DNA of 64,000 nt from Escherichia coli (GTDB taxonomy: Bacteria > Pseudomonadota > Gammaproteobacteria > Enterobacterales > Enterobacteriaceae), in NCBI RefSeq assembly GCF_044324875.1, contig NZ_CP172185.1. One strand, written 5' to 3'. The first letter of the stretch is position 1. The number at the start of each line of letters is the position of its first letter. A model generated the notes under the pieces. That model made no database searches and had not been told where the DNA came from. It saw only the letters and a list, made by a program, of their open reading frames with translations. Both the position numbers and the translations under genes were made by a program. This document shows positions 49,639 to 54,708 of this stretch, in pieces.

Positions 49639-49740
49639 GATGCCGGATGCGGCGCGAACGCCTTATCCGGCCTACAAAAGTTTGCAAATTCAATAAATTG
49701 CAGAATTCATGTAGGCCTGATAAGCGAAGCGCATCAGGCA
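49639..49740. repeat. BIME: two REP elements in inverted orientation
   Basis: gatgccggatgcggcgcgaacgccttatccggcctac (49639-49675) and gtaggcctgataagcgaagcgcatcaggca (49711-49740). Confidence 0.8.
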
Positions 49741-49795: not shown

Positions 49796-50758
49796 TTAAT
49801 ACAGTTTTTTCGCGCAGTCCAGCCAGTCGCCTTTGAACGGACGCTTCATGTTTTCGATAGCGTCGATGATGTCGTGGTGAACCAGCTGTTCGTTCTGGAT
49901 ACCTACGCAACGACCGCCGTAACCTGCCAGCAGCAGATCGATAGCGTAAGCGCCCATACGGGAAGCCAGAATACGGTCGTAAGGCACCGGAGAACCACCG
50001 CGCTGGATGTGGCCCAGCACAGTTGCGCGGGTTTCACGACCGGTTTCTTTCTCGATGAAATGCGCCAGTTCGTCAACATCACACATATGTTCGGTAATCG
50101 CCACGATCGCGTGTTTTTTACCTTTCGCGATACCCGCTTTGATTTCGTTTACCAGGTCTTCACGGCTGAATTCAACTTCCGGAACTACAACGAATTCACA
50201 GCCACCGGCAATGGCCGCAGCCAGGGTCAGATCGCCACAATAACGGCCCATCACTTCCACCACGGAAATACGCTGGTGAGAAGAAGAGGTGTCACGCAGA
50301 CGGTCGATCGCTTCTACAACGGTGCTCAGCGCAGTGAAGAAACCGATAGTGTAGTCAGTGCCTTTGATGTCGTTGTCGATAGTGCCCGGCAGACCGATGC
50401 ACGGGAAGCCCATTTCGGTCAGACGCATTGCACCCATGTAGGAACCGTCACCGCCGATAACCACCAGCGCGTCGATACCACGTTTTTTCAGGTTTTCGAT
50501 AGCCACGGCGCGGATGTTCTCGTCGCGGAATTCCGGGAAACGCGCAGAACCGAGGAACGTACCACCACGGTTGATCATGTCAGAAACGCTGTAACGGTCT
50601 AGCTGTACCATACGGTCTTCATACAGACCCAGATAGCCGTCATAAATGCCCATTACTTCCAGACCTTCTGTCAGCGCAGAACGAACAACCCCGCGAATTG
50701 CGGCGTTCATGCCTGGCGCATCACCGCCGCTTGTCAACACACCGATTTTCTTAATCAT
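49796..50758 (-). CDS. pfkA: 6-phosphofructokinase I
   Basis: Internal ATG at 50758 gives 320 aa [42 protein letters not shown]...; ORF-track start is a 32-codon extension. Confidence 0.97.
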
Positions 50759-50938
50759 GACTACCTCTGAACTTTGGAATGCAAAATGAAATCTGTTGCC
50801 GGAAGTCTTCTTGCACATCGAAGTGATCCAACGAATGTGCAAATAGTATAACAATCACTTCCTGCTGAATTGATTCAGGTCAGGCCAAATGGCGGTATTT
50901 TATACACAAAATGCGGGTCTGGCTCTCTTTTATACTGA

Positions 50939-51841
50939 TTATGAAAGCATAGACCGTTTACCCTCCCTGGGTACGACGGAACAGGGGTCCTGATGGATAA
51001 TCACATCCGATCCCGGAAAACGCCGTAAAATAGCCTGCTCTACCTGATCCGCCACCATATGTGCCTGAACCAAAGGCAGAGAGTCTTCCATTTCCAAATG
51101 AATCTGAATAAAGCGGGTCGGCCCTGACTGCCGCGTGCGAAGATCGTGAGCGCCGCTAACACCCGGCCAGGAAGTCACGATATCAATAATTTCTTGCCGT
51201 TCTTCATCAGGCAATGCGCGATCCAGTAATGACTGTACCGCCTCATATCCCATGCGTAACGCGCTATATAAAATATAGATGCCGATTCCCAATGCAAACA
51301 GAGCATCGGCGCGATGCCAGCCGTACCAGGACAACCCCAGCGCCAGCAGAATTGCGCCGTTCATCATAACATCAGACTGGTAATGTAGCATATCAGCCCG
51401 CACCGCCTGGCTTTGCGTCCGGCGCACCACCCACCGCTGAAACGAGACAAGGATAATCGTACAAATTAGCGCCACAATTGTCACGATTACCCCGACGCCT
51501 GGATCTGTCATCGGTGTTGGAGATATCAGATGTTGAATACCCGTCAAAAAGAGGAATAGTGCCGAACCGGAGATAAACATACTTTGCGCCAGCGCCGCGA
51601 GGGACTCAGCTTTACCGTGACCAAACGAGTGATTATCGTCGGCAGGTTGCAGGGAATATCGCACCACCAGTAAATTCGTCAACGACGCGCCGATATCCAC
51701 CAGCGAATCCACCAGCGCGGCGAGAATACTCACCGACCCGGTATACCACCATGCAAAAATTTTAATCAGCAATAGCAGTGAAGCCATCGCCGTTGCAGCA
51801 ATCGCCGCCCGACTGACCAGCCGTCCATAAGATTGATTCAT
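50939..51841 (-). CDS. fieF: Cation-diffusion facilitator (Zn/Fe efflux) FieF/YiiP
   Basis: Internal ATG at 51841 gives 300 aa [47 protein letters not shown]... Confidence 0.94.
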
Positions 51842-51922
51842 AAATACTCCCGCTATCAACTGACGCTAGTATAACGGAAGCAAATCATCTGCAATGCATT
51901 AAGCAGCAGGCAAATTGAGGAT

Positions 51923-51989
51923 AAAAAAAACCCCCACATCATGTGGGGGAAGACAGGGATGGTGTCTATGGCAAGGAAAACAGGGTTTA
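51923..51989 (-). ncRNA. cpxQ: Probable CpxQ sRNA (cpxP 3'-UTR-derived) ending at the cpxP intrinsic terminator
   Basis: Seen: strong terminator (minus-strand hairpin cccccacatgatgtggggg + U-run, plus coords 51923-51949) ~40 nt after the cpxP stop. Established knowledge: CpxQ is processed from the cpxP 3' UTR. The 5' end cannot be defined from sequence alone. Confidence 0.5.
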
Positions 51990-52490
51990 CTACTGGGAAC
52001 GTGAGTTGCTACTACTCAATAGCTTCAACGATGAACTTTTTTGCCATTGCGTCACGTCACGCAACTGCTCCATTCGTTGTTGATGTTTCTCATTTAAAAC
52101 CGCTTGCTGCTCCGGCGTTAACAGGCGATACATTTGGTTGCGGACTTTTGCCATCTCAACCTGACGAGCAATTTGCTCATTCGCCATTTTTTCTGCCTGT
52201 GCGCGCACAGCGTTTTCATCAAAATTTTCTGCGGTGACAAGGCGATGCATTGTCTCCAGTTCGCTAACATTAACAGGAGGCTGTTCGTGCCGGGCCTGTT
52301 GCATAAGATCTCGCATCTGCTGACGCTGATGTTCGGTTAAACTTATGCCGTCGAACATATGGCTCTGCGTACTGCGCTGCGTAAGTTCTTCACCCGGATG
52401 CCAGTTATCGCCTGAACCGACTTCAGCAGCGTGGCTTAATGAACTGACTGCCAGCGTTGAGGCCATGACGGCAGCGGTAACTATGCGCAT
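51990..52490 (-). CDS. cpxP: Periplasmic stress adaptor CpxP
   Basis: ATG at 52490 gives 166 aa [36 protein letters not shown]...; two LTxxQ motifs. Confidence 0.95.
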
Positions 52491-52569
52491 CATTTGCTCC
52501 CAAAATCTTTCTGTCGCGATTCAACGATAGAGAGTTTACGATTCAGGCTGCAAACATGCGTCAGGGGGT

Positions 52570-52584
52570 GTAAAACAACGTAAA
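52570..52584. promoter_or_regulatory. CpxR-P binding site (GTAAA-N5-GTAAA) in cpxP/cpxRA divergent region
   Basis: gtaaaacaacgtaaa exactly matches the CpxR consensus direct repeat. Confidence 0.65.
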
Positions 52585-52639: not shown

Positions 52640-53338
52640 ATGAATAAAATCCTGTTAGTTGATGATGACCGAGAGCTGACTTCCCTATTAAAGGAGCTGC
52701 TCGAGATGGAAGGCTTCAACGTGATTGTTGCCCACGATGGGGAACAGGCGCTTGATCTTCTGGACGACAGCATTGATTTACTTTTGCTTGATGTAATGAT
52801 GCCGAAGAAAAATGGTATCGACACATTAAAAGCACTTCGCCAGACACACCAGACGCCTGTCATTATGTTGACGGCGCGCGGCAGTGAACTTGATCGCGTT
52901 CTCGGCCTTGAGCTGGGCGCAGATGACTATCTCCCGAAACCGTTTAATGATCGTGAGCTGGTGGCACGTATTCGCGCGATCCTGCGCCGTTCGCACTGGA
53001 GCGAGCAACAGCAAAACAACGACAACGGTTCACCGACACTGGAAGTTGATGCCTTAGTGCTGAATCCAGGCCGTCAGGAAGCCAGCTTCGACGGGCAAAC
53101 GCTGGAGTTAACCGGCACTGAGTTTACCCTGCTCTATTTGCTGGCACAGCATCTGGGTCAGGTGGTTTCCCGTGAACATTTAAGCCAGGAAGTGCTGGGC
53201 AAACGCCTGACGCCTTTCGACCGCGCTATCGATATGCACATTTCCAACCTGCGTCGTAAACTGCCGGATCGTAAAGATGGTCACCCGTGGTTTAAAACCT
53301 TGCGTGGTCGCGGCTATCTGATGGTTTCTGCTTCATGA
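52640..53338 (+). CDS. cpxR: Envelope stress response regulator CpxR (OmpR family)
   Basis: 232-aa ORF MNKILLVDDDRELTSLLKELLEMEGFNVIVAHDGEQALDLL...; 4-nt ATGA overlap with cpxA. Confidence 0.97.
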   Translation: MNKILLVDDDRELTSLLKELLEMEGFNVIVAHDGEQALDLLDDSIDLLLLDVMMPKKNGIDTLKALRQTHQTPVIMLTARGSELDRVLGLELGADDYLPKPFNDRELVARIRAILRRSHWSEQQQNNDNGSPTLEVDALVLNPGRQEASFDGQTLELTGTEFTLLYLLAQHLGQVVSREHLSQEVLGKRLTPFDRAIDMHISNLRRKLPDRKDGHPWFKTLRGRGYLMVSAS

Positions 53339-54708
53339 TAGGCAGCTTAACCGCGCGCATCTTCGCCATCTTCTGGCTGACGCTGGCGCTGGTGTTGATG
53401 TTGGTTTTGATGTTACCCAAGCTCGATTCACGCCAGATGACCGAGCTTCTGGATAGCGAACAGCGTCAGGGGCTGATGATTGAGCAGCATGTTGAAGCGG
53501 AGCTGGCGAACGATCCGCCCAATGATTTAATGTGGTGGCGGCGTCTGTTCCGGGCGATTGATAAGTGGGCACCGCCAGGACAGCGTTTGTTATTGGTGAC
53601 CACCGAAGGCCGCGTGATCGGCGCTGAACGCAGCGAAATGCAGATCATTCGTAACTTTATTGGTCAGGCCGATAACGCCGATCATCCGCAGAAGAAAAAG
53701 TATGGGCGCGTGGAACTGGTCGGTCCGTTCTCCGTGCGTGATGGCGAAGATAATTACCAACTTTATCTGATTCGTCCGGCCAGCAGTTCTCAATCCGATT
53801 TCATTAACTTACTGTTTGACCGCCCGCTATTACTGCTGATTGTCACCATGTTGGTCAGTACGCCGCTGCTGTTGTGGTTGGCCTGGAGTCTGGCAAAACC
53901 GGCGCGTAAGCTGAAAAACGCTGCCGATGAAGTTGCCCAGGGAAACTTACGCCAGCACCCGGAACTGGAAGCGGGGCCACAGGAATTCCTTGCCGCAGGT
54001 GCCAGTTTTAACCAGATGGTCACCGCGCTGGAGCGCATGATGACCTCTCAGCAGCGTCTGCTTTCTGATATCTCTCACGAGCTGCGCACCCCGCTGACGC
54101 GTCTGCAACTGGGTACGGCGTTACTGCGCCGTCGTAGTGGTGAAAGCAAGGAACTGGAGCGTATTGAAACCGAAGCGCAACGTCTGGACAGCATGATTAA
54201 CGACCTGTTGGTGATGTCACGTAATCAGCAGAAAAATGCGCTGGTAAGCGAGACATTGAAAGCTAACCAGTTGTGGGGCGAAGTGCTGGATAACGCGGCG
54301 TTCGAAGCCGAGCAGATGGGCAAGTCGTTGACGGTTAACTTCCCGCCTGGGCCGTGGCCGCTGTACGGCAACCCGAACGCCCTGGAGAGTGCGCTGGAAA
54401 ACATTGTTCGTAATGCCCTGCGTTATTCCCATACGAAGATTGAAGTGGGCTTTGCGGTAGATAAAGACGGTATCACCATTACGGTGGACGACGATGGTCC
54501 TGGCGTTAGCCCGGAAGATCGCGAACAGATTTTCCGTCCGTTCTATCGTACCGATGAAGCACGCGATCGTGAATCTGGCGGTACAGGTTTGGGGCTGGCA
54601 ATTGTTGAAACCGCCATTCAGCAGCATCGTGGCTGGGTTAAAGCGGAAGACAGCCCGCTGGGCGGTTTACGGCTGGTGATTTGGTTGCCGCTGTATAAGC
54701 GGAGTTAA
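53335..54708 (+). CDS. cpxA: Envelope stress sensor histidine kinase CpxA
   Basis: 457-aa ORF MIGSLTARIFAIFWLTLALVLMLVLMLPKLDSRQ...; H-box DISHELRTPLTRL. Confidence 0.97.
   Translation: MIGSLTARIFAIFWLTLALVLMLVLMLPKLDSRQMTELLDSEQRQGLMIEQHVEAELANDPPNDLMWWRRLFRAIDKWAPPGQRLLLVTTEGRVIGAERSEMQIIRNFIGQADNADHPQKKKYGRVELVGPFSVRDGEDNYQLYLIRPASSSQSDFINLLFDRPLLLLIVTMLVSTPLLLWLAWSLAKPARKLKNAADEVAQGNLRQHPELEAGPQEFLAAGASFNQMVTALERMMTSQQRLLSDISHELRTPLTRLQLGTALLRRRSGESKELERIETEAQRLDSMINDLLVMSRNQQKNALVSETLKANQLWGEVLDNAAFEAEQMGKSLTVNFPPGPWPLYGNPNALESALENIVRNALRYSHTKIEVGFAVDKDGITITVDDDGPGVSPEDREQIFRPFYRTDEARDRESGGTGLGLAIVETAIQQHRGWVKAEDSPLGGLRLVIWLPLYKRS

Follow-up and report, generated by a model that had tools for sequence, protein, structure and literature searches.

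The DNA analysed here, referred to as the window, is a stretch of 64,000 nucleotides from Escherichia coli contig NZ_CP172185.1 (assembly GCF_044324875.1). The region of interest has the gene order cpxA-cpxR / cpxP / fieF. The open reading frame encoding CpxP extends from 51990 to 52493 (-) and ends with a TAG stop codon (51992-51990, minus strand); alignment with MG1655 places the equivalent of the curated K-12 start at 52490. Genes cpxR (52640-53338) and cpxA (53335-54708) are both located on the plus strand, divergent from cpxP, and fieF, downstream of cpxP, starts at 51841 (-). The promoter region between the divergent cpxR and cpxP genes contains a CpxR box, GTAAAACAACGTAAA, which was matched a single time in the 64 kb against 0.06 matches expected. 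The coordinates of all features are given in the table.

Table. Features of the cpxP-fieF region of the window, and positions in other records that were compared with it.
Feature	Position	Strand	Basis
CpxR box GTAAAACAACGTAAA in the cpxR-cpxP divergent promoter region	52570..52584	(+)	perfect motif match
cpxP coding sequence, parental mRNA of CpxQ	51990..52490	(-)	ORF list, MG1655 CDS mapping, RefSeq label
Spacer between cpxP stop and CpxQ 5' end, UAAACCCUG, 9 nt	51981..51989	(-)	K-12 annotation
cpxQ, mature 58-nt CpxQ sRNA, UUUUCCUUGCCAUAGACACCAUCCCUGUCUUCCCCCACAUGAUGUGGGGGUUUUUUUU	51923..51980	(-)	MG1655 b4716 alignment, conservation
Single-stranded 5' seed region of CpxQ	51967..51980	(-)	unpaired in predicted fold; invariant in 81/81 loci
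Small internal hairpin AGACA / CCAUCCC / UGUCU, 5 bp	51951..51967	(-)	minimum-free-energy fold
Rho-independent terminator hairpin, 8 bp, 3-nt loop	51931..51949	(-)	terminator scan, fold, covariation
U8 tail, transcript 3' end	51923..51930	(-)	sequence; 100% conserved
Unoccupied attB core of Wphi-type P2-like phages	51920..51966	(-)	47 nt identical to phages
Copies of the 45-nt core in records L084 and L003	L084 9153-9197 and 40238-40282; L003 3001-3045		
Loci without fieF directly after the cpxQ U-run	L004, L011, L013, L025, L030; L017, L023, L026-L028, L041, L042		

The original prediction held that the 3' UTR of cpxP is a probable locus of the small RNA (sRNA) CpxQ, on the grounds of a GC-rich hairpin about 40 nt after the stop codon on the minus strand and a run of eight U behind it. 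Both elements are exactly where they were said to be: 40 nt (51989-51950) lie between the stop codon and the stem, and the hairpin is immediately followed by T8 at 51930-51923. The hairpin reads CCCCCACA-TGA-TGTGGGGG in DNA (51949-51931), or CCCCCACA-UGA-UGUGGGGG as RNA, and six of its eight pairs are G-C. A U-tail of this kind is the usual Hfq-binding 3' tail in sRNAs of the class of CpxQ. A terminator scan picked precisely the hairpin plus T8 (51949-51923). Over the 2 kb scanned, though, the number of sites found was two against 2.0 expected from shuffled sequences, so that a match to the pattern, taken alone, is weak evidence. The predicted fold of the 67-nt 3' UTR has a free energy of -17.4 kcal/mol (z = -2.35 relative to shuffles) and consists of a 5-bp hairpin and the terminator hairpin. 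The evidence that goes beyond chance is comparative, and consists of the conservation of the segment (see below) and of covariation in the terminator stem. Compensatory changes were observed at two pairs of this stem (CG/UA/GC and AU/UA/CG); its covariation score was not reached by any of 500 shuffles, and controls in which the position was slid scored much lower. All five pairs of the internal hairpin are invariant in 25 distinct sequences and, because of this invariance, covariation argues neither for nor against that hairpin.

The curated MG1655 record contains, directly after cpxP, an ncRNA gene named cpxQ (b4716, 'small regulatory RNA CpxQ', 58 nt) at 4106330-4106387. When aligned to the window this gene mapped to 51980-51923 (-), with 57 of its 58 bases identical, which supports the assignment of the locus to CpxQ. 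The sole difference concerns position 51939 in the 3-nt loop of the terminator, where the window has A and K-12 has C; the A variant predominates, in E. coli as well as in other genera. Of 5426 complete E. coli genomes, 5425 were matched by a 70-nt query covering the UTR, and likewise 5425 by a 201-nt query around cpxQ. For the 70-nt UTR, an exact match to the window is present in 4189 of the 5426 records, and a difference of about one base in 1235; the 201-nt query showed 100% identity with many of the genomes. The first bases of the RNA, UUUUCCUUGCC at 51980-51970, are the same as in K-12, and the alignment with known CpxQ that had been proposed as a check accordingly leaves the seed bases C5, C6 and U7 (51976-51974) intact. 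The presence of C, C and U at these three positions agrees with a 5' end at 51980. The interval of the original prediction, 51923-51989, is correct for the 3' UTR as a whole, but the mature RNA occupies 51923-51980 and the first 9 nt of that interval lie upstream of the processing site. The accompanying statement that the 5' end needs experimental mapping is outdated, as this end has been published in Salmonella and in E. coli, where it belongs to an RNase E-processed species of 58 nt.

Judged from the K-12 annotation, RNase E would cut between G51981 and U51980. The sequence around this putative cleavage site is identical to that of K-12, and has U at -2, G at -1 and UUU at +1 to +3. The published RNase E motif is RN|WUU (bioRxiv 10.1101/271551); positions +1 to +3 agree with it, whereas the R at -2 is not matched. 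The spacer that separates the stop codon from CpxQ ranges in length from 5 to 23 nt among the 81 loci that we compared (see below), and in all 81 the U-run is immediately preceded by CCCUG.

Some 3'-UTR-derived sRNAs have internal promoters, and the RNA could accordingly be conceived as a primary transcript that starts at a promoter of its own inside the 3' end of cpxP and is not processed. A promoter scan of the minus strand from 51990 to 52200, however, revealed no sigma-70-like site, and the first base of the RNA, U, is a poor start nucleotide (PMC10250213). In addition, it has been published that RNase E processes CpxQ from the cpxP 3' UTR, with Hfq sharpening the cut and protecting the product, and that CpxQ is lost upon mutation of the cleavage site (PMC9438474). 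A 5' monophosphate and dependence on RNase E have likewise been reported for CpxQ (bioRxiv 10.1101/271551; PMC9438474). We therefore consider an origin from an own promoter exceedingly improbable and retain processing from the cpxP mRNA as the source of CpxQ.

Conservation of the locus was analysed by means of a CpxP protein scan in which each species was represented by one genome. This yielded 80 Enterobacteriaceae loci, which come from Escherichia, Citrobacter, Salmonella, Klebsiella, Enterobacter, Kosakonia, Raoultella, Kluyvera and other genera and together with the window make up 81 sequences. A 31-nt core, CCTTGCCATAGACACCATCCCTGTCTTCCCC, situated shortly (a few bases) beyond the stop codon of cpxP, is invariant in all 81, and the exact 58-mer of the window is the commonest variant (33 of 81 loci). 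Percentages of identity to the window were calculated for the 55 loci in which fieF is the directly adjacent gene. For these loci, CpxQ shows 98% identity, and the segment 51950-51980 shows 100%. By comparison, the final 147 nt of cpxP reach 76% (64% if third codon positions are taken alone), and the spacer leading to fieF reaches 51%. Variation within CpxQ is confined to the upper terminator stem and the loop. Stronger conservation of an untranslated segment than of the gene preceding it has been described as the signature of CpxQ (review PMC9438474).

With regard to the spacer between cpxQ and fieF, we observed a conserved island at 51868-51879 (-), with 86% identity in the 10-nt bin 51870-51879, while the rest of the spacer is poorly conserved (25-50%). 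The island includes the sequence TATACT (51873-51868, minus strand), which precedes the start codon of fieF by about 27 nt, and it is probably the -10 element of this gene. A separate observation concerns some loci of Citrobacter, Salmonella arizonae and Enterobacter, in which unrelated genes instead of fieF follow the U-run of cpxQ.

The conservation data bear on the view that the segment is a mere cpxP 3' UTR with an intrinsic terminator and is devoid of a separate function as RNA. A hairpin followed by a U-run is indeed typical of any terminator, and the scan described above retrieved no more sites than were found in shuffled sequences. A plain terminator, however, has no need for 31 invariant bases upstream of its stem in 80 species, with the cpxP coding sequence at only 76% identity. 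Moreover, a discrete and functional sRNA has been demonstrated experimentally in E. coli and Salmonella. The RNA of K-12 appears as a 58-nt species on northern blots, and mutations C5G, C6G and U7A in the bases 5-7 of E. coli CpxQ abolish repression of cfa (bioRxiv 10.1101/271551). This leaves the plain terminator with hardly any credibility.

Together, these results lead us to conclude, with a probability of about 0.97, that the region 51923-51980 (-) is the gene for CpxQ, the 3'-UTR-derived sRNA of the Cpx envelope stress response, as shown by sequence identity, position, structure and conservation. CpxQ is a textbook case of an sRNA that originates from a 3' UTR, in which one stress-induced mRNA yields both a protein and an RNA regulator. 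The gene is thus an already known one and involves no new biology; the value of the result is one of annotation, in that cpxQ is to be marked at 51923-51980 (-).

At gathering thresholds, a search of the whole window with Rfam gave no family at the cpxQ locus. Elsewhere in the window three matches exceeded the gathering score: a ClpQY promoter element at 34531-34588 (+), a leader of ribosomal protein L31 at 29867-29919 (-), and the sRNA ES036 (CssrF) at 49677-49718 (+), the last of which is situated directly downstream of the pfkA open reading frame (49796-50854, minus strand). In a permissive scan the best match at the cpxQ locus was RF02628, Hrs1, at 51923-51995 (+), with E = 1.4e-7. Its score of 44.5 bits is below the gathering threshold of 56.4 and its strand is antisense to cpxP, and the locus, although homologous to Hrs1 (see below), therefore does not qualify as a member of RF02628 in the present form of the model. 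NsiR1, RyhB and OmrA-B also produced weak matches in the permissive scan, which we regard as chance matches driven by the hairpin and the U-run.

The orientation of the Hrs1 match, with the E-value given above, would place the functional RNA on the opposite, plus strand. Such an RNA would have A8 and then a hairpin at its start, but no terminator. The consensus of the Hrs1 model likewise opens with AAAAAAA and then a hairpin, and resembles a terminator in reverse. The reverse-complemented consensus of RF02628 and the sequence made up of the cpxP 3' end and CpxQ in the window agree at 55 of 74 aligned positions; the alignment score is 87, compared with 26 in the forward orientation. Hrs1 of Erwinia amylovora has been described as an RNA of 74 nt located between cpxP and fieF, on the strand of these genes and with a Rho-independent terminator, and as Erwinia-restricted and Hfq-dependent (PMC4070566). 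A plus-strand RNA is on these grounds very hard to sustain, and we give it almost no weight relative to a minus-strand CpxQ. Hrs1 is therefore most likely the Erwinia orthologue of CpxQ, and RF02628 seems to represent CpxQ in the wrong orientation. The lack of a match at gathering score is due to the lack of a CpxQ model in Rfam and not to a deviation of the sequence. Among the RefSeq rows that we saw under the match, only cpxP is named, with the exception of the curated K-12 record. Automatic annotation of ncRNAs is understood to depend on Rfam, and the absence of cpxQ from these rows may be due to Rfam having no correct CpxQ model.

Transcription, cleavage, Hfq binding and targets in this strain can be proposed by extension from the literature. 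Phosphorylated CpxR would activate the cpxP promoter via the predicted box at 52570-52584; the cpxP promoter is described as the one that the Cpx response induces most strongly (PMC4817254). Transcription would pass through cpxP and stop at the hairpin plus U8 (51949-51923), after which RNase E, aided by Hfq, would cut between 51981 and 51980, at a distance of 9 nt from the stop codon, and the product would be a stable RNA of 58 nt that carries a 5' monophosphate. The invariant and mostly single-stranded 5' two-thirds of CpxQ would then pair with the mRNAs of nhaB, skp, agp, ydjN, fimA and cfa, and this pairing would reduce their translation or stability. It has been published that E. coli nhaB is repressed by CpxQ, with U7 pairing with nhaB, and that CpxQ is unusually stable, having a half-life above 16 min (PMC10250213). 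Repression of skp and lower CpxP levels caused by CpxQ in E. coli are also reported (PMC4817254), and CpxQ has been found to be Hfq-dependent (bioRxiv 10.1101/271551; PMC9438474; PMC4817254).

The 3' end of cpxQ also coincides with a phage attachment site. The 47 nt from 51966 to 51920 of the window consist of the last 44 nt of cpxQ and the 3 nt that follow, and thus take in the second half of the pairing region, the terminator and the U-tail. They are identical in the P2-like phages Wphi, L-413C and fiAA91-ss and in about 60 further records. In the window this site is unoccupied: there is a single copy of the core, and fieF is the next gene, as in K-12. By contrast, about 836 of the 5426 complete E. 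coli genomes (~15%) contain an element at this site; in these occupied genomes the match to the 201-nt query ends with the base pair that follows the U-run, and a second, partial copy is present. In strain EcPF16, for instance, a 31-kb P2-like prophage with integrase, Cox, ogr, tail and capsid genes separates cpxQ from fieF. On its two sides lie 45-nt direct repeats, equal to the 3' part of cpxQ, that are 31,085 bp apart, and the full cpxQ is retained in the repeat copy adjoining cpxP. The same 45 nt adjoin the integrase gene in a circular 32-kb record which is annotated as a plasmid and contains P2-like phage genes. Integrases 60-76% identical to the Wphi-type enzyme were found at the cpxQ junction in Escherichia sp. 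MOD1-EC7003 and several Kosakonia, with different flanking DNA, and the 3' end of cpxQ looks like a recurrent insertion point.

The integration site of Wphi and L-413C at MG1655 4104392 was mapped before CpxQ was known (PMC3448106), and our search of the literature retrieved no paper in which CpxQ is tied to phage integration. Integration at the 3' ends of small RNA genes, with restoration of the gene, is common among temperate phages. Integration of Wphi-type phages at cpxQ fits this habit and leaves the reading of cpxQ unchanged. Since the attachment core is the 3' end of cpxQ, each of these phages has a promoterless CpxQ 3' module, and each lysogen possesses an additional, incomplete copy upstream of fieF. 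This copy, were it transcribed, could give rise to a truncated CpxQ or act as an Hfq decoy, which we view as a very unlikely, speculative role; no promoter for the partial copy was found.

Compared with CpxQ of E. coli K-12 and Salmonella (Chao & Vogel 2016; Grabowicz et al. 2016), the gene described here has the same locus, strand and length of 58 nt. The seed, internal hairpin, terminator stem and U-tail are identical, and it is only the loop base at 51939 that distinguishes it from the K-12 gene. Hrs1 (RF02628; Zeng & Sundin 2014) shares with CpxQ of the window its position between cpxP and fieF, its strand and its terminator, and is Hfq-dependent, but differs in its described length and in its supposed restriction to Erwinia, as well as in the antisense orientation of its Rfam model. 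Finally, SdhX, SroC, NarS and MicL are, like CpxQ, 3' ends of mRNAs that are cut by RNase E, share the terminator of the mRNA and depend on Hfq (PMC9438474), but they differ from CpxQ in their parental genes, seeds and regulons.
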